Assembly: GCA_963707635.1 (NCBI GenBank)
Contig: OY970173.1
Location: 1,184,001-1,248,000, forward strand
Direction: 5' to 3'
Source of the DNA: Candidatus Latescibacterota bacterium
Lineage (GTDB): Bacteria; Krumholzibacteriota; Krumholzibacteriia; WVZY01; JAKEHA01
DNA: 64,000 nt
Shown here: positions 1,834 through 11,652 of the stretch, one piece after another
How positions within the stretch are numbered: the stretch's first letter is position 1
How the letters are laid out: each line of letters starts with the position of its first letter
Notes under the pieces: generated by a model
Told to the model about the DNA's origin: nothing
Databases searched by the model: none
What the model saw: the letters and a program-made list of their open reading frames with translations, nothing else
Program-made: the position numbers and the translations under genes

Positions 1834-1863
1834 TTGACTAAGCGATGCGACATGGAGTACACT
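1834..1863 (+). promoter_or_regulatory. putative sigma70 promoter for the first secreted-protein pair
   Basis: TTGACT-18 bp-TACACT; a matching promoter sits the same distance upstream of the duplicated pair. Confidence 0.6.
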
Positions 1864-2146: not shown

Positions 2147-2862
2147 ATGAAGGCTGTGATCTTGGTTCTTCTCTCCGTTTTGATCGCGGTTCCCGCGTTC
2201 GCGGGCGCACCGGTGAACGGCACCTACAAGTCCACCGACATCGGTGGTCTGATGCTGCCGGGCCGCTACAGCGAGTTGTGGTTCGGAGGCAAATTGGTGG
2301 TCAACAACACGCTCAACGAACAGTCGTGGGACGGCTCGACCCTCGGGCGCGCAGTGGCACTGGTACTGTCCGTGGATCTCCGTCCCACCGGTCTTGCTGG
2401 TCAGCACCGTGAACGTGCGCCGGCAACGGCCAGAAGATCTGGAAAGTGACCTACGTCGGAGGCTATTGCTGGCTGAACGGTCCGGGTGCGCCCTGGGACG
2501 GCGGCGACGCCGCGTACACGGCCACTATCAACACCTGGAATGCGACTGTGACCGAGACGTACTCGGGCTTCGTCGAGGTAGGAACGGTCCGCAACCATAC
2601 CGCGAGCGCCACCTTCGTGGGCTACAACACCAAGTGCATGAACCTCGCCGTGTCGAACATCGAGAAGCAGGGCGATACCAACGGCGGCCCGCTGCCGTCG
2701 AATTACCCCGACTTCTGGAATTGGATCGGCTGCAGCGACGTCGGCACCGCCGGACCCGGCGAGTGGGGCGACATCGACAGCATCACGTTCACGATCAAGG
2801 GTTGCGAGACCGTGAGCACCGAATCGACTTCTTGGGGCGCCGTCAAGGCGCTGTATCGCTAG
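2147..2862 (+). CDS. secreted protein type A with C-terminal SWGAVKALYR tail (two +1 frameshifts, ~2346 and ~2416)
   Basis: AGGAGG RBS and signal peptide MKAVILVLL...AFA; removing two bases gives an ORF colinear with paralogue 4101-4814. Confidence 0.85.
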
Positions 2863-2928
2863 CAAGCATTCAACGCAGGCCGCGCGGGTGGTTCGATCCA
2901 TTCGAGCGACCGTAAGGAGGACGAAAGC

Positions 2929-3615
2929 ATGAGGAATGTGATCTTGGTTTCCATTCTGGCGGTGGTGCTTGCGATGGGTGCCGTGGCCGCGTTTGCCGCC
3001 CCGCCCGTCAACGGGACCTGGAAGTCGTCGGACGGCTGGTTCGACGAAGGGCGTGAGGCATCGTCGTGGCCCGGCGCGAACGGGTTCCTGTCGCCCGGCA
3101 ACGTGTTGCACGCCGAGTCCTGGGACGGTTCGGCCCTGGGCGGCGATTGGAAGATCCTGTGTCCGGTCGTTCAGGACACGCTTCTGATCTTCAGCACGGT
3201 GTCGGCGGGTACCGGGCACATGAGCTACCTGCTCACCTACAAGGGCGGAACGATCGAGCTCGGCGCCGGTCCGTGGGGCGGTCCCTTCACCGGTGTGATC
3301 GACACGTACTACGAGACGCGGTCAATTCAGTTCGTCGACGGAGTGATGGTCGGCTCGGTCAGCGACCATTCCGTCGATGCGCACATCGTCGGTTATCCGG
3401 CCAGCTGCGTGGCGTTCGGTATCGGGAACGGCGTGTGGCTCGGGAGCGGCGCATTGCCCGCGGGTTACCCGGACTACCGGGACGCCAGTTGCGTGGCCGG
3501 ACCGGCCAACGGTCACTATGGTGAGTTCCGTGACCTGACTCTGTCGGTTCAGGGGTGCGAAGTCTCCACGGAACGGTCGAGCTGGGGCGCGGTAAAGGCG
3601 CTGTACAAGAACTAG
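2929..3615 (+). CDS. secreted protein type B with C-terminal SWGAVKALYKN tail
   Basis: AAGGAGG RBS, signal peptide, paralogous to 4938-5631. Confidence 0.9.
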   Translation: MRNVILVSILAVVLAMGAVAAFAAPPVNGTWKSSDGWFDEGREASSWPGANGFLSPGNVLHAESWDGSALGGDWKILCPVVQDTLLIFSTVSAGTGHMSYLLTYKGGTIELGAGPWGGPFTGVIDTYYETRSIQFVDGVMVGSVSDHSVDAHIVGYPASCVAFGIGNGVWLGSGALPAGYPDYRDASCVAGPANGHYGEFRDLTLSVQGCEVSTERSSWGAVKALYKN

Positions 3616-3653
3616 ATTCGCGGCGCCCGCGGCCGTCAGAGTTGTTTGGAATG

Positions 3654-3697
3654 GGATCCTCAGCCCCCTTCGCGGGGGCGAGGGTCCTGTTTCGTTT
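3654..3697 (+). terminator. Rho-independent terminator after pair A-B
   Basis: GGATCCTC-A-GCCCCC/TTCGC/GGGGGC-GAGGGTCC stem followed by TGTTTCGTTT. Confidence 0.65.
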
Positions 3698-3783
3698 GTG
3701 GCGTTTTGGGTCACCGCTCGACTCCAAGATGCGGGCCGTGCACCAGTTTTTTGCTCCTGCCGCCGTTTCCCACCAGCTGTAGA

Positions 3784-3812
3784 TTGATTTTCCGCCCGCT
3801 TCGGGATACAAT
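3784..3812 (+). promoter_or_regulatory. putative sigma70 promoter for the second secreted-protein pair
   Basis: TTGATT-17 bp-TACAAT. Confidence 0.65.
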
Positions 3813-4100
3813 ACCGTGCAATTGACACATTCGAGACGTCTCGCTCGCGCGAATTCCCCGGCGCAGTGAGGCGCAGACAGGGGGTGCACCGAGCGCACCT
3901 GGCCGCGAATGACGCGGCGAAGGGCGAGCCGCAGTTGGTTGTGCCTGACTGGGCAACGTGTCTATCTGGTCCAAGTTCCCACTGGCTTGTTTTTCCATTT
4001 TCCACCGGGCGCTTTCTCACCAGCCGGGCGACGAGCCGACGCGGTCCTATTGAACGGTGCACAAGGGCATTTGCGCACGATCGTGCAAGGAGGAAGCGTT

Positions 4101-4814
4101 ATGAAGTCTTTGATCTTGATTCTCATCTGCATCGCGATGGCGGTTCCCGCGCTGGCCGGACCGCCGGTGGATGGGACCTACAAATCCACCGACATCGGCG
4201 GGTCGATGCTGCCCGGCCGCTACAGCGAGCTGTGGTTCGGCGGCAAGCTGATGGTCAACAACACCCTCAACGAGCAGTCGTGGGACGGCTCGACCCTCGG
4301 AACCCAGTGGCACTGGTACTGCCCGTGGATCTCCGTCCCGCCGGTCCTGCTGGTCAACACGGTGAACGGCGCCGGTAACGGCCAGAAGACGTGGCGCGTC
4401 ACCTACACGGGCGGCTACTGCTGGCTCGACGGCGGGGGTCCGTGGGCCGGCGGCGACGTCACGTACGTGGCGGACATCACCGTCTGGATCGCGATCGTGA
4501 CCGAGACGTACTCGAACTTCGTCGAAGTGGGCACGGTTCGTAACCACAATGCCCAGGCACAGTTCACGGACTACGACAAGAAGTGCATGGACCTCTCGAT
4601 CAGCAACGTGGAGAAGCGCGGCGATACCGACGGCGGACCGCTGCCGGCGAACTACCCGGACTTCTGGAGCTGGTTCGGGTGCAGCGACGTCGGCACGGCG
4701 GGACCCGGCGAGTGGGGCGACGTCGACAGCATCACGTTTACCATCCGCGGTTGCGGCGGCGTCAGCACGGAAACAATGACCTGGGGCGCAGTCAAGGCGC
4801 TCTACCGCGACTAG
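4101..4814 (+). CDS. secreted protein type A' with C-terminal TWGAVKALYRD tail
   Basis: AAGGAGG RBS, ATG at 4101 (MKSLILILICIAMAVPALA signal peptide); long identical stretches with 2147-2862. Confidence 0.9.
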   Translation: MKSLILILICIAMAVPALAGPPVDGTYKSTDIGGSMLPGRYSELWFGGKLMVNNTLNEQSWDGSTLGTQWHWYCPWISVPPVLLVNTVNGAGNGQKTWRVTYTGGYCWLDGGGPWAGGDVTYVADITVWIAIVTETYSNFVEVGTVRNHNAQAQFTDYDKKCMDLSISNVEKRGDTDGGPLPANYPDFWSWFGCSDVGTAGPGEWGDVDSITFTIRGCGGVSTETMTWGAVKALYRD

Positions 4815-4937
4815 TCCAGAGACGTTTTGCCTCCGGGACACGCAACCGTTGTCCGGGCATCCGAGAGTCGTTCCTGGAGTGGTCGGGTGGAACTGGCGCC
4901 GATGCCGGCGCCTGTATGAACCAGGGAGGGTAAGGGC

Positions 4938-5631
4938 ATGAGGAATTCGAAATTGGTGCTGATAATGCTCGTCGTTCTGGCGGCCACGGCGACGGCCGCG
5001 CTGGCGGGCGCGCCGATCGACGGCGTCTACAAGTCGTCGAACGGTGATTTCAATGAGGGTCGCGAGGGATCGTGGTGGGGCGGCGGGAGACTTCCTCGAT
5101 CTAGGCAACGTGCTACACGCGGAATCGTGGGATGGATCGACACTCGGGACCGACTGGAAGATCCTGTGTCCAGAGGTCGTCAGGGTCACGTTGATCGTCG
5201 ACTTGACGTTCGGCGGAACCGGCCAGAAGATCTACCAGTTGGACTACAGGGGCGGCTATCTCGAGTTGAGTGGCGGCGGCCCGTGGGGCAATGGCGATGC
5301 CGTGTATACCAACGTGATCGACACCTACTACGAGTTTCGAACGATTCAGTACGAAGCCGGAGTCAAGATCGGTTCGGTGAGCGACCATTCGGTGACCGCG
5401 CACTCAACTTTTACGGAGAAGTGCTTTACCTGGGGTATCGGCAACGGGGTCTGGCTCGGCGAGAGCGGTCCTGCGCCGAGCGGTTACCCGGAGTACGAGA
5501 TCGGAGCTGCCATGGGGGCTCTGAAGGCCGGTCACTGGGGCGATATTCGGGACCTGACGCTCACGATCGAAGGCTGCACTGTCTCGACCGAGCAATCCAG
5601 TTGGGGCGCCGTTAAGGCCATCTATCGGTAA
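4938..5631 (+). CDS. secreted protein type B' with C-terminal SWGAVKAIYR tail (+1 frameshift ~5086)
   Basis: ORFs 4938 and 5044 join into a full paralogue of 2929-3615 if one G is removed from GGG at 5085-5087. Confidence 0.85.
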
Positions 5632-5907: not shown

Positions 5908-6609
5908 TTACTCCATATCCTCTACGTAGAACAAGTCACCCCCCACCTCTCTGCATGAGTTCTGCCTTCCGGTGCCCATCAGGGCCAACAGAGAGTGGGG
6001 ATATGGGAAGAAGTGGAGATGGAGATCGAAAGTGTGCTTGTAGGGTCTCTGCTTGGGGACGACAATAATCAGTCGCCGCCTGGTTACCCTTCGGAGCTCT
6101 TGAATACCCTGAAAGACATTCTGGATGTGCTCCAACGTATGCGTAGCGACGACCGTATCGAAGCAATCGTCTTCAAACGGCAGACGCTCCATGTTTGCTT
6201 CCCGCCAGTCAATCTCGGGGTGTTGATTCCTCAGCTGAGGATCGATCATGATGTCAACCGCGGTTACTCGCGACTGCTTGCTCATCTTCTTGGCGAGAAG
6301 TCCTCTACCGCTGCCGACCTCCAGTACCGTTTGCCCAACGAGATTTCTCAGAATCTCCTCGACGCATTGTGTATTCAGGTCAGTCTCTCTCTCGATGAGA
6401 ACTGGCTGGACCCGCTCGTAAACACCAAGAAACTCCTGCTCTGTCATTGCCATCGCCGTCTGTTTGAATCCGAGGAATGTCGGTGTCGTGGCTCCGAACA
6501 GAACCTTGAAGGGCGGAATGATAAACCACTTTGCATCCCGAATGATTGGTGGGATACAATTGTCCAGTAGAAAATGGATCTTTAGGGAGAGATTTCTGCT
6601 CAATTTCAT
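5908..6609 (-). CDS. class I SAM-dependent methyltransferase
   Basis: VLEVGSGRG, NMERLPFEDDCFD and HTLEHI motifs. Confidence 0.9.
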   Translation of the reverse strand: MKLSRNLSLKIHFLLDNCIPPIIRDAKWFIIPPFKVLFGATTPTFLGFKQTAMAMTEQEFLGVYERVQPVLIERETDLNTQCVEEILRNLVGQTVLEVGSGRGLLAKKMSKQSRVTAVDIMIDPQLRNQHPEIDWREANMERLPFEDDCFDTVVATHTLEHIQNVFQGIQELRRVTRRRLIIVVPKQRPYKHTFDLHLHFFPYPHSLLALMGTGRQNSCREVGGDLFYVEDME

Positions 6610-6672
6610 GGCGCTATCCTATCATCTCGAGTCTGTCGTTTCTAGGGTCACCGTGGAACTGACGAGCTTTCT

Positions 6673-7653
6673 ATGCGCAGGCTGACGATAGTCGGTTCGG
6701 TCTACAACGAAGCCGATGTGCTTCCGATGTTTTTTTCGGAGTTGACCGAACAGCTCCGTCGGATGGACGTCCAGTACGAGATCATTCTGGTCAACGACGG
6801 GAGCACAGATGAAAGCAAGGACCGCCTGGCCGAGTTTGCGGCACAACACCGCGCGGTCAAGGTGGTCTGTTTTTCCCGAAATTTCGGTCACGAGGCGGCA
6901 ATGACCGCCGGTATCGACCACGCCACGGGTGATGCTATCGTCTGCATGGATACGGATCTCCAACATCCGCCGGCTGAGATACCGAGGATGCTCGAAGCCT
7001 GCGCTTCCGGTTCCGAGATCGTGTACATGAAGCGGTTAAAGCGCGAGGACGCAAGCTTCATTCGCCGCGTAACGTCCAGATTGTTCTACCAGGCGCTCAA
7101 TCGGATATCAAAGATCAGGATCGAGCCCGACGTATCGGATTTCTTCCTGATTTCGAGCCGGGTCGCCGGGATCTTGCGCACCAGTTACAAGGAGCGCACG
7201 CGCTTCCTGCGCGGAATCATCCAGCAAGTGGGCTTTCCGACCAGCGTGCTTGAATACACCGCCCCGAGCCGGGCGGCCGGCCACACGAAATATTCTTTCT
7301 GGCGTCTATTGCTTTTTTCTGCGGTTGCGATCGCATCGGTGTCGCAAGCACCGCTGAGGTTCAGTATGTTGGCGGCGTTGGGGTTCATGCTCATCAGCCT
7401 TGCTTTGGGAATATACTCGATCATCATGAAGCTTCTCGGGTCGCCGTTTTCGGGGTACACGACACTTGTTGTGCTCACGAGCTTCGGATTCAGCGTCGTA
7501 CTCCTGATGCTGGGAATTGTCGGCGAGTATCTCGGTAGTGTCTTTGTCGAAAGTAAGCAGCGGCCCGTTTACATCGTAGCGGAGATCATCGACTCCGAGA
7601 CGCTGACGGACTCCGCGCGGATGGTCGTCAAAGGAACCGGCCCAAGACCTTGA
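6673..7653 (+). CDS. GT2 polyprenol-phosphate glycosyltransferase (GtrB/ArnC-like)
   Basis: YNEA, VNDGSTD, SRNFGHEAA and DTDLQHPP motifs; two C-terminal TM helices; QRPVYIV. Confidence 0.92.
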   Translation: MRRLTIVGSVYNEADVLPMFFSELTEQLRRMDVQYEIILVNDGSTDESKDRLAEFAAQHRAVKVVCFSRNFGHEAAMTAGIDHATGDAIVCMDTDLQHPPAEIPRMLEACASGSEIVYMKRLKREDASFIRRVTSRLFYQALNRISKIRIEPDVSDFFLISSRVAGILRTSYKERTRFLRGIIQQVGFPTSVLEYTAPSRAAGHTKYSFWRLLLFSAVAIASVSQAPLRFSMLAALGFMLISLALGIYSIIMKLLGSPFSGYTTLVVLTSFGFSVVLLMLGIVGEYLGSVFVESKQRPVYIVAEIIDSETLTDSARMVVKGTGPRP

Positions 7654-8984
7654 ATGTACTCTCGCTCCTGATTTCCAGTGACCGCCGGGCCATGACGGCG
7701 CTTGCGTCGACGGCGGTTCTGGTCCGACTGCTGTTCGCGTGGGGTGTCGCACCCATTCTGGCACGGCACGGGATCGAAGCGGACGCCTGGCCGGATTCGT
7801 ACTGCCTCTTTTCGGAAAACCTAATCAACGGCCACGGTTTTGCGGTGCAGCCCGGCACCGCGTCGGTGATGCGCGGACCGGTTCAGCCGCTGTTCGGGGC
7901 ACTGATCTTTCTGATCTTTGGCATCCGTAATCTCGTCGGTGTTCAGCTCTTCCATGCGCTGCTGGACAGCGTGACGACGATACTCGTGTTTGCGATCGGG
8001 AAACAGGTCTTTGGCCGGATGGCGGGTTTCACCGCTGCGGTGATGTTCACGTTCTATCCGTTGTCCATTTGGTATAGCGGGAGCATGAGCATGGTGCCGT
8101 TGTTGACTGCGTTGTATTGCCTGTTGTGCTGGGTGGTCCTGCGCAGTGCGGAGGACCCCAGCGCGGCGCGCAGCGTCAGCGTTGGTGTGGCACTTGGCGT
8201 CATAACGCTCACGCTCCCCATAACCCTGCTGTTCCCGCCCATTCTTCTTGCCCTGTGGCTCCTGATGCGGCTGCCCCGGCGCCGCGCCTTGGCACACTGG
8301 ATCATTGTTTGCATCGTCATGGCGGTTGTTGTCGGCCCCTGGACAATTCGCAACTATAGAGTAACGGGCCGGTTCATTCCGGTGTCTGCAGGCGGCGGCT
8401 ATGCATTTCTCTTCGGCGACCTGTTCGCCGAACGGTTCGATGGCTTCTCGCCCTACTCGGACGAGTATCCAGATGAACATGCGCTTCAGCACGTGGAGAA
8501 CGAGCGTGTTGCGGCGCTCCTTCCCCCCGATCTTGCCGCGCGATTCTGGTACCTGGACATGGGGCCCGAGATAACGGGAATCCTCGATCGTCAAGCGGCA
8601 CAGTCCATACTGAAAAGACCGTTCAGGTTCGTCAAGAAGGTGGCAATTCAGACCGTTACATTCTGGTATCTGGGTAACAACCGTATGAAGACGTTCGCCA
8701 TACTGGCGGTTCAGATGGTTTGCGTGGTCCCTTGGTTCCTGGTGGGCTTGTTTCTGAGCTGGAAGCGCCGAATCGCGCCAGCCCTGCCGTTGCTGCTACT
8801 CATCGTCTATCTCAACCTCACGTACGCCGCCACAATAGCGAATGCGCGTCATGGCATGCCGGCTATGCCAATCGCGATTGTCTTTGGCGGGTTCGCACTC
8901 TGCGAACTCTTGCGACGCCGGGTATCCGATCATCCGGCCACCACCAGGCGATCAAATACGCGCACACCGCCGCGGCTGGCCTAG
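7650..8984 (+). CDS. GT-C fold membrane glycosyltransferase (ArnT/PMT-like)
   Basis: multiple TM helices, DSY acidic loop and PWTIRNY motif; TTG start overlaps the GT2 stop (ATG 7692 is an alternative start). Confidence 0.8.
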   Translation: MNVLSLLISSDRRAMTALASTAVLVRLLFAWGVAPILARHGIEADAWPDSYCLFSENLINGHGFAVQPGTASVMRGPVQPLFGALIFLIFGIRNLVGVQLFHALLDSVTTILVFAIGKQVFGRMAGFTAAVMFTFYPLSIWYSGSMSMVPLLTALYCLLCWVVLRSAEDPSAARSVSVGVALGVITLTLPITLLFPPILLALWLLMRLPRRRALAHWIIVCIVMAVVVGPWTIRNYRVTGRFIPVSAGGGYAFLFGDLFAERFDGFSPYSDEYPDEHALQHVENERVAALLPPDLAARFWYLDMGPEITGILDRQAAQSILKRPFRFVKKVAIQTVTFWYLGNNRMKTFAILAVQMVCVVPWFLVGLFLSWKRRIAPALPLLLLIVYLNLTYAATIANARHGMPAMPIAIVFGGFALCELLRRRVSDHPATTRRSNTRTPPRLA

Positions 8985-10001
8985 CTAGAACAGGAGGCGA
9001 CGCAGCGCGGCGTATGCCATCTGGCCCACATACAACCTCGCCGGAGAATAGACTCTCACAAACCGGCCAAAATTGACCAGCTGACCCTGAAACCGGCTCT
9101 TGAATTCCCGAACTCCATACTCGACGTTGGGATCACCCGCCCCACCGAAATCAAATATCTCGTGCCCACCTCTGCATCCCCAGCGGACCATGTCCCAGAC
9201 GAGAAGGGCGTTTGCATTCAGTTTGTCACCTTCCGCACTGCTGCCGGCAAACCAGTCGAAGACGCGCCCGTGGTACACGAGGGCTGCACGGCTGGCAATC
9301 ACGCTGCCATTGTGTCGAGCGAGTGTAATGCGCAGTCGGCCGAGCGGTGCCAGCCGGAGCCATGCCTCTTGAAAGATCTCCTTCGGGAAAAACGGCAAAT
9401 GCGCCCTTGAGTAGATCCGTGATACCAATTCGTGAAAAATATCGATCTGCGTGGGTTCCGACACTTCTGTGATCTCGATGCCGGTCTTCTCGGCACGTTT
9501 GAGCATGCGGCGTTGATCTCCGGAGAAGTCTTCCCAGATGCCGTTCTCGTCCTTTCTCAAATCAACGAGATAGTTCAGGTGCGGTACGAATTTGTACCCG
9601 CTGCGCGTCAACGGAATGATTCGTGATGTCTGGTCGGTCATGTTCCGTATTTCTGTGAAGAGCGCCTGCGTCTTCATAGTGTCGTCGTATGCACTAACCA
9701 GCGTCCCGATATGCTTGTTAAGGTAGCGCTCGGTTACATCGTGTGCGCAGGAAATGCCACCGAAAACGACAGAACGCGATGTGAACCTCGGCAATGACGC
9801 GAAGATCCTTGTCTGCACCGCAACAATACATGCGATTGGCCTGCCGTCTTCCTGAAGGAAGAACACGTGAGGCGTGTACTTGGGAGACCCGGCGAAACAA
9901 TCGACAAATTGCCGCGTGTGAAAGATGTTAGCCGAGGGATTGCTATCCGTGTAGTGATCCCATGCGTCGTGGGGAACCGAGCGAACGACTTCGATGGGCA
10001 T
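8985..10001 (-). CDS. FemAB-like GNAT acyltransferase / peptidoglycan-bridge-like family
   Basis: WDHY...PSANIFHT N-terminus; NALLVW...FDFGGAG...GVREFKSRFQG C-terminus. Confidence 0.85.
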   Translation of the reverse strand: MPIEVVRSVPHDAWDHYTDSNPSANIFHTRQFVDCFAGSPKYTPHVFFLQEDGRPIACIVAVQTRIFASLPRFTSRSVVFGGISCAHDVTERYLNKHIGTLVSAYDDTMKTQALFTEIRNMTDQTSRIIPLTRSGYKFVPHLNYLVDLRKDENGIWEDFSGDQRRMLKRAEKTGIEITEVSEPTQIDIFHELVSRIYSRAHLPFFPKEIFQEAWLRLAPLGRLRITLARHNGSVIASRAALVYHGRVFDWFAGSSAEGDKLNANALLVWDMVRWGCRGGHEIFDFGGAGDPNVEYGVREFKSRFQGQLVNFGRFVRVYSPARLYVGQMAYAALRRLLF

Positions 10002-10224: not shown

Positions 10225-11539
<1,315 letters not shown>

Positions 11540-11586
11540 GCGTTTCCTCCGTTCGTCGCCCGTGGGCGACTCTTTCGATTCGGGAC

Positions 11587-11652
11587 ATGATAGCGGGCGC
11601 GAGATCATAATTGAAGTTTATTTGAATTATGAATATTATAAGTATTACTTAT
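11587..11652. promoter_or_regulatory. divergent ino1/LysR control region with two LysR boxes
   Basis: ATAA-N7-TTAT at 11607-11621 and ATAAGTATTACTTAT at 11638-11652; minus-strand TTCAAT-17-TATCAT promoter (11615-11587). Confidence 0.7.

Follow-up and report, generated by a model that had tools for sequence, protein, structure and literature searches.

A short, predicted helical C-terminal tail on putatively exported proteins of Krumholzibacteriota and its possible link to type IX secretion

The 64,000-nucleotide window analysed here comes from the genome of Candidatus Latescibacterota bacterium (GCA_963707635.1; Krumholzibacteriota in GTDB), hereafter G000, which is a single contig of 3.2 Mb (G000:C1, OY970173.1). 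The window corresponds to G000:C1:1184001-1248000; positions of genes and tails are given in window coordinates, and those preceded by G000:C1 refer to the whole host contig. Close to its start, the window contains four co-oriented genes, arranged as two A-B pairs, whose products share a short C-terminal tail with a [ST]WG motif (the TWG tail). In agreement with the original prediction, which was made from the letters of the window, all four tails are present and each directly precedes a stop codon:

2147..2862, + strand: gene A1, encoding a signal peptide, a small beta-barrel passenger and a TWG tail, with two frameshifts (~2346 and ~2415)
2800..2859, + strand: tail 1, GCETVSTESTSWGAVKALYR, end of gene A1, stop directly after
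2929..3615, + strand: gene B1, intact, 228 aa, encoding a signal peptide, a predicted soluble 8-stranded-type beta-barrel, a coil linker and a C-terminal helix
3553..3612, + strand: tail 2, GCEVSTERSSWGAVKALYKN, end of gene B1, stop directly after
4101..4814, + strand: gene A2, intact, 237 aa, family of A1/B1
4749..4811, + strand: tail 3, GCGGVSTETMTWGAVKALYRD, end of gene A2, stop directly after
4938..5631, + strand: gene B2, family of A1/B1, with one frameshift at ~5056-5095
5572..5628, + strand: tail 4, GCTVSTEQSSWGAVKAIYR, end of gene B2, stop directly after

The original prediction distinguished two protein types with a tail more conserved than the remainder. The conservation of the tail stands (14 identical residues among the last 21), but types A and B are 36-37% identical over their whole length and belong to one family, a fifth paralogue of which is located at G000:C1:1646258. 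The window by itself is therefore unable to show that the tail is portable. As proposed, the N-termini of all four proteins look by eye like Sec signal peptides. The proposed GC-x(1-2)-VSTE signature is found in the four proteins, but GC is specific to this family and VSTE is a special case of a less strict P-[VT]-[PAS]-[VT]-E linker. An AlphaFold2 model of B1, calculated from a 45-sequence alignment, contains an all-beta core with predicted local confidence (pLDDT) of about 95, a coil (residues 185-195) and a helix (residues 196-204) with pLDDT of 77-79, so that in the model the tail is a separate helix on a coil linker, outside the barrel. No Pfam or NCBIfam model fits the four window proteins, the Protein Data Bank (PDB) contains no sequence relative of the passenger (nor of the candidate barrel or lipoprotein A described below), Foldseek returned nothing for the passenger at E 0.001, its ESM Atlas matches were all below 0.9, and no relative of B1 was found in viral contigs. 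The best VIA-align result for the passenger (Z 8.6, root-mean-square deviation 4.1, 125 aligned; 7x80) is near what a common small barrel usually gives, and no function was given to the passenger because structural likeness to small 8-stranded barrels is non-diagnostic.

The distribution of the tail was examined in the host genome with the pattern [ST]W[GS].[VILM]K..[YFW], which gave 44 matches among 48,065 six-frame open reading frames (ORFs). Forty-three of them lie no more than 5 residues from the stop (5.5% would be expected), with 1-5 residues following the tyrosine, and the sole internal copy is located between two repeats of a lipoprotein. By single linkage, the 43 carriers fall into 26 unrelated passenger groups (27 when lipoprotein A is counted), some carriers being frameshifted fragments, so the tail is not confined to one paralogue family. 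Its consensus, P-[VT]-[PAS]-[VT]-E-x-x-[TS]-W-G-x-[VI]-K-x-L-Y-R, comprises about 15 residues, in which W, G/S, K and Y hardly vary and lie on one face of the predicted helix in an i, i+3, i+7 pattern. The helical moment peaks at 110 degrees and the mean hydrophobicity of 204 tail cores is near zero, in line with the earlier description of a short, amphipathic segment without a transmembrane (TM) helix. The carriers are small, with a median frame of 236 aa compared with 656 aa for proteins of G000 that bear the C-terminal domain (CTD) of a type IX secretion system (T9SS), and only 4 of 59 carriers from other genomes exceed 450 aa, a few frames reaching 750-840 aa. Among 33 tail ORFs, Pfam cut-offs were exceeded by CHRD (2), lamin-tail, DUF7450 and cupredoxin domains, and the others matched nothing over the cut-off. 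By a crude rule that accepts any ATG, a signal peptide was assigned to 34/44 carriers, 66/101 CTD proteins and 436/1285 size-matched others; a stricter rule applied from called starts gave 11/38, 25/96 and 485/2540, respectively, a weak enrichment in the same direction.

Beyond the host, a stop-anchored DNA pattern of the tail matched 185 of 201 phylum genomes, and the reversed pattern, used as a control, matched none of the 201. Family f3, in which the first pattern was found in 3/12 genomes, was initially taken for a tail-less lineage; this was rejected when a looser pattern revealed a SWSx[VI]KxLY-stop variant. Because f3 carries this variant, the phylum offers no natural negative, and a phylogenetic profile is unable to pick the reader of the tail. 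A scan of species genomes gave at least 122 stretches with the tail, 80 of them titled; the submitters' labels of these 80 are Eisenbacteria, Krumholzibacteriota, Latescibacterota, Gemmatimonadota, Zixiibacteriota, 'Fibrobacteraceae' or unclassified bacteria, and none is Bacteroidota. Eight viral contigs also encode tail-bearing proteins, several with signal-peptide-like starts, which may be phage cargo or host DNA. Paralogue pairs with and without the tail occur in G000 (G000:C1:927270-928070 and 180895-181659, 57% identity; 2858708-2859385 and 1910931-1911482, 30% identity), as does a degenerate C-terminal tail, TMSEIKALYR (G000:C1:2808950-2810014; 15 bits on the tail matrix). Neither Pfam nor NCBIfam matched any of 65 tails, and no description of the tail was found in the searched literature, a search that did not extend to subscription journals and supplements. 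In G000, neither the 101 CTD frames nor the 2674 called genes contained a tail placed ahead of a CTD.

To see what stands at the end of homologous domains, the B1 domain without its tail was searched against 1.84 billion representatives. Of the 142 homologues found, 84 end in strict tails, 8 in variant tails, 13 in PEP-CTERM-like segments (10 over the TIGR02595 cut-off of NCBIfam) and 1 in a CTD, and the remainder are 8 long proteins, six of them with dockerin-like ends by eye (no NCBIfam match), and 28 fragments or others. In the alignment, the PEP motif begins at the column where GC-x-VSTE of the tail begins. The homologue with a CTD, P0044, terminates in TIGR04183 over the cut-off, after 680 further residues that follow the domain. 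An exchange with a CTD is also apparent in the adjacent host paralogues G000:C1:1065854 and 1066653, which are 41% identical up to DDVYF...VP and then continue as an LPTE-tail and a TGVGD-CTD, respectively; cohesin-like tail proteins of G000 likewise match CTD protein 1324692. The exchange with PEP-CTERM and CTD at the same column or residue identifies the tail as a portable module and not as part of a fold.

These observations bear on the proposal that the tail belongs structurally to the fold of the window family, or else is a substrate of the exosortase of the host. Complete order-level homologues of the family do all retain the tail, except for one that is probably frameshifted, and G000 has one exosortase. 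However, the tail occurs on 26 unrelated passenger groups and is replaced by PEP-CTERM in homologues, the model places the helix outside the barrel and with lower pLDDT, the tail has no TM segment, and the exosortase has a PEP-CTERM target of its own in G000. We regard this proposal as largely refuted, with a very slight chance of being correct. As a reader of the tail, the exosortase was rejected: the exo/archaeosortase model TIGR04178 matched in 17/30 genomes and was not found in the tail-rich genomes G008, G013 and G205, several of the tail-rich genomes without a match being 97-100% complete. The exosortase of G000 is encoded in a polysaccharide locus that also contains a PorV-like gene (G000:C1:2030129-2037381), and the single PEP-CTERM protein is located at 3019684-3020307; PEP-CTERM/exosortase thus coexists with T9SS and the tail in one genome.

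Taken together, the tail is very probably a genuine C-terminal signal, portable and uncatalogued, that serves in some way as an address or for docking. PEP-CTERM and the T9SS CTD are surface or extracellular signals, and the exchange with them speaks most strongly for the tail being an address, presumably that of the surface. In this respect the export or anchoring role put forward in the original prediction is supported. An alternative is that the tail acts within the envelope, as a periplasmic retention, chaperone or protease signal, and that the carriers never reach the surface, where they have been placed by reasoning from sequence. A tail-bearing cupredoxin with a tail-less paralogue in G000 would fit such a role. 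On the other hand, the same domains elsewhere carry PEP-CTERM and T9SS CTDs, and the carriers include CHRD, lamin-tail and DUF7450 domains, which are typical extracellular passengers. We therefore consider confinement to the envelope quite improbable.

No processing enzyme is encoded in the window, as had been noted before, and the candidates are located elsewhere in the genome. G000 encodes SprA, PorU adjoining PorV and several PorV paralogues (the PorV cut-off is exceeded at 7 places) and contains 102 CTD matches. SprA and PorV were found in 30/30 phylum genomes, and a PorU-family match was present in 60 of 62 genomes (44 over the cut-off), a set that was reached only through the tail pattern, is a subset of the species-scan matches and includes kin that are not independent. 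GldM (TIGR03517), a component of the PorLM/GldLM motor of T9SS, had no match in G000, and no control genome matched either. Also found in 30/30 phylum genomes is a second PorU-like C25 protease (in G000 from G000:C1:2725491 upward, frameshifted in the assembly), in which His and Cys match the dyad of the G000 PorU in 20/20 aligned rows. Three full-length orthologues of this enzyme score below the cut-offs of both PorU (NF033707; 115-215 bits versus 420) and PorU2 (NF052324; 50-149 versus 450); by sequence, it is a separate subfamily of the phylum. A 'PorU2' passage in PMC12365241 was unrelated. Among 20 of the 30 regions around the second C25, chosen for long contigs and family spread, 15 have tail genes on the same strand immediately upstream. 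In the host (G000:C1:2725491-2732762), three tail genes and one gene with a weak match to a GC-type dockerin precede the enzyme.

The linker of the tail may provide a further connection to T9SS. PorU is described as cutting in the stretch that precedes the CTD (PMC4804311; PMC11969387), with the cut lying inside a linker of this type, ahead of a small residue (PMC11969387). On a weight matrix built from tail linkers of other genomes, 90 pre-CTD stretches averaged 4.16 bits, compared with 1.3-1.7 for upstream windows and 3.06 for the same windows after shuffling (p 1e-5). We propose that the tail serves as a short substitute for the CTD in a pathway that is related to T9SS and has its own sortase, and we assign to this reading a probability of roughly 0.45. 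Small unrelated carriers, whose starts resemble signal peptides, would first be exported by Sec; the predicted amphipathic helix of the tail would then be recognised by T9SS-related machinery; the second PorU-like C25 would cut in the P-V-x-T-E linker preceding the tail; and the cut carrier would be anchored or released at the cell surface. Of this route, we infer from sequence comparison that the carriers reach the surface, that they pass through SprA, that they are cleaved and which protein reads the tail. The second PorU-like C25 is the best lead to the reader, and a barrel-lipoprotein operon, described below, is the second.

Several observations weigh against the T9SS-related route. The likeness of the tail linker to pre-CTD stretches is partly compositional, as shuffles already reach 3.06 bits. 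The genes beside the second C25 appear to be one cohesin-like cargo family, which may mark a partner subunit and not substrates, and 5 of the 20 regions are without tail-gene synteny, with kin among the 20 not independent. Compared with other genes, tail genes are no closer to CTD genes (p 0.28), and because T9SS is universal in the phylum, co-occurrence is unable to separate it from the barrel operon or other universal envelope genes. The beta-strands that PorV reads are absent from the tail, and in P0044 the 680 intervening residues mean that no junction swap took place. Finally, the shortest CTDs described (PMC11969387) comprise 40-55 aa and three strands.

The tail could instead be an uncleaved docking helix that binds non-covalently, in the manner of a dockerin or a type B CTD, to an envelope receptor such as a PorV/PorP-type barrel, a lipoprotein or a scaffold, so that small proteins are held on the surface. 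The concentration of the nearly invariant W, G/S, K and Y on one helical face, with the moment peak at 110 degrees, would fit a binding surface of this kind. The internal copy in one lipoprotein lies between repeats, where an export signal is unneeded; six long homologues have the dockerin-like ends mentioned above; and the 7 places over the PorV cut-off would provide candidate receptors. Such a helix would not, however, explain by itself how carriers cross the outer membrane; the placement of 43/44 copies at the extreme C-terminus, with 1-5 residues after the tyrosine, and the CTD-like linker ahead of the tails also count against it. Docking of this type is possible, but we consider it unlikely.

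The second lead is a single-copy operon at G000:C1:374257-376823 that encodes a barrel followed by lipoproteins A and B (lipoA and lipoB). It is part of a conserved barrel-lipoprotein region after rsmA (G000:C1:371617-376823) that is found once per genome across the phylum and for which no family model exists. The barrel protein (G000:C1:374862-376823, 653 aa) was modelled with 28 strands and without a plug (pLDDT 90.7), and the nearest solved fold to the model is MtrB (TM-score 0.49). It is present in 30/34 genomes (23/25 by profile), the barrel-lipoA-lipoB order is conserved, and the operon is near-universal among tail-bearing genomes. Both lipoproteins are NTF2-like, as indicated by weak Pfam matches of paralogues and by Atlas neighbours. 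After a variable linker, lipoA ends in [ST][WFLMS]GxLR, with an invariant G and near-invariant LR. A tail profile matched lipoA with E 0.0039 and lipoB with E 0.38, the hhalign probability being 8.7%, and lipoA orthologues have a median of -4.7 bits on the tail matrix, on which true tails score at least 24. The resemblance of the lipoA helix to the cargo tail is real but weak: the tail may have originated from lipoA, or the lipoA helix may be a plug for a tail-binding site or a product of convergence.

If the likeness is meaningful, the tail would be the export signal of a separate, undescribed outer-membrane translocon composed of the 28-strand barrel and the two NTF2-like lipoproteins. In Krumholzibacteriota, Eisenbacteria and related lineages, this translocon would export small folded proteins in parallel to T9SS, with large cargo passing through SprA; the [ST]WGxLR helix of lipoA would be the ancestral helix, kept as a plug built into the binding site of cargo tails, and the exported proteins would be anchored by a PorU-like sortase dedicated to them. 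The absence of a plug in the barrel model, the fact that MtrB encloses a protein, the conservation of the barrel, of the operon order and of the lipoA helix residues, the profile match and the small size of the carriers would all fit, as would the full tails on extra NTF2 paralogues in the operon of the host genus. Against this, the hhalign probability and the matrix scores are low, and no co-variation between the cargo tail and the lipoA helix was found: f3 has WS in the cargo and WG in lipoA, and other families have WG in the cargo and T[LM]G or TSG in lipoA. Moreover, clusters similar to lipoA extend to Cloacimonadota, Rhodothermota and Bacteroidota, three groups without a tail among the 80 titled matches, and a few carriers have frames of 750-840 aa. 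Since the likeness is weak and without co-variation, the translocon is kept as a bold case, and we hold it to be improbable.

Returning to the window, each A-B pair is preceded by a promoter-like site and a leader of ~280 nt. The remaining features of the locus are:

1834..1863, + strand: promoter-like consensus of the A1-B1 pair (consensus match only), then a ~280-nt non-coding leader
3667-3684: terminator-like hairpin, preceding the A2-B2 promoter-like site
3784..3812, + strand: promoter-like consensus of the A2-B2 pair (consensus match only)

Contigs of relatives from RNA libraries start at 1823 and 1896-1897 near the first promoter-like site and, in three studies, at 3832, 3833 and 3843 near the second; these are weak hints, as such contigs are no proof of transcription. 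A sequencing-run search returned no run containing half of the region's words. The leaders (1870-2146 and 3820-4100) share the short blocks GGGGTGCACC, GCGGCRAARGGCGAGCCGCAG and TTCTCACCAGC, are both covered by relatives' contigs at >80% identity, and had no match in an Rfam scan. Frameshifts are frequent throughout the assembly. Those of gene A1 are probably assembly errors, because relatives' contigs lack one base at 2344-2349 and at 2416, the sites of both breaks; this evidence covers gene A1 only. The flanks, named by eye, contain 2-oxoacid:ferredoxin oxidoreductase alpha/beta-like genes (1-1717), a methyltransferase/glycosyltransferase cluster (5908-10001) and a frameshifted inositol-3-phosphate synthase-like gene (10225-11608).

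To our knowledge, the C-terminal sorting signals described in diderm bacteria either span the membrane (PEP-CTERM and its kin) or are folded domains (T9SS CTD). If our reading is correct, a 15-residue soluble helix that takes the place of both on one domain would represent a third design. Each genome would use it on tens of proteins, throughout entire phyla of uncultured bacteria, and thousands of hypothetical proteins could be annotated as envelope cargo. It would also raise the question of how cargo is chosen by T9SS outside Bacteroidota, for which two testable readers, the second PorU-like enzyme and the uncharacterised barrel-lipoprotein operon, can be named.

The candidate barrel resembles MtrB (PDB 6R2Q) in being a large plugless outer-membrane barrel encoded beside lipoprotein partners, but it differs in its 28 predicted strands, in the modest similarity (TM-score 0.49, 10% identity) and in having no cytochrome partner; Slam and the type XI secretion system (Slam/T11SS) may provide a functional analogy. 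Like PorU2 (NF052324), a putative second T9SS sortase, the enzyme of the phylum is a second PorU-like C25 with its own CTD, but it remains below the PorU2 cut-off. The beta-signal of the barrel assembly machinery (BAM), a last amphipathic beta-strand with an aromatic end, is not what is observed, as the tail is predicted to be helical and the passengers are mostly not membrane barrels.

With the T9SS type A CTD (TIGR04183/PF18962, here similar to FlgD_ig PF13860; a signal that binds PorV, is cut by the sortase PorU, NF033707, and leads to attachment to LPS), the tail shares the C-terminal position, the Sec signal peptide, unrelated passengers, a P/T-small-V linker as a putative cut site, occurrence in the same genomes and exchange on paralogues. 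The host has the SprA, PorV and PorU that this system requires, and Sec signal peptides are present as judged by eye and by the crude rule. The CTD, however, is a beta-sandwich of 70-80 aa, whereas the tail has ~15 residues and one predicted helix; neither the four window proteins nor the 65 tails match TIGR04183 or PF18962, and the tail cargo is about one third the size of CTD cargo. The short CTDs of Prevotella intermedia are a precedent for signals of two lengths, both cleaved and anchored, in one T9SS, but they comprise 40-55 aa with three beta-strands and keep motifs B, D and E (PMC11969387), none of which the TWG tail has. The PEP-CTERM/exosortase system (TIGR02595/TIGR02602) is likewise based on a short C-terminal segment found on many small unrelated exported proteins, and it occupies the same column on the window domain. 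It has a TM helix and a basic cluster, and the tail has neither; exosortases are patchy in the phylum and do not strictly co-occur with the tail, which has no TIGR02595 match. In summary, the tail appears to work like a T9SS CTD or a PEP-CTERM signal and, as the original prediction had it, belongs to neither.

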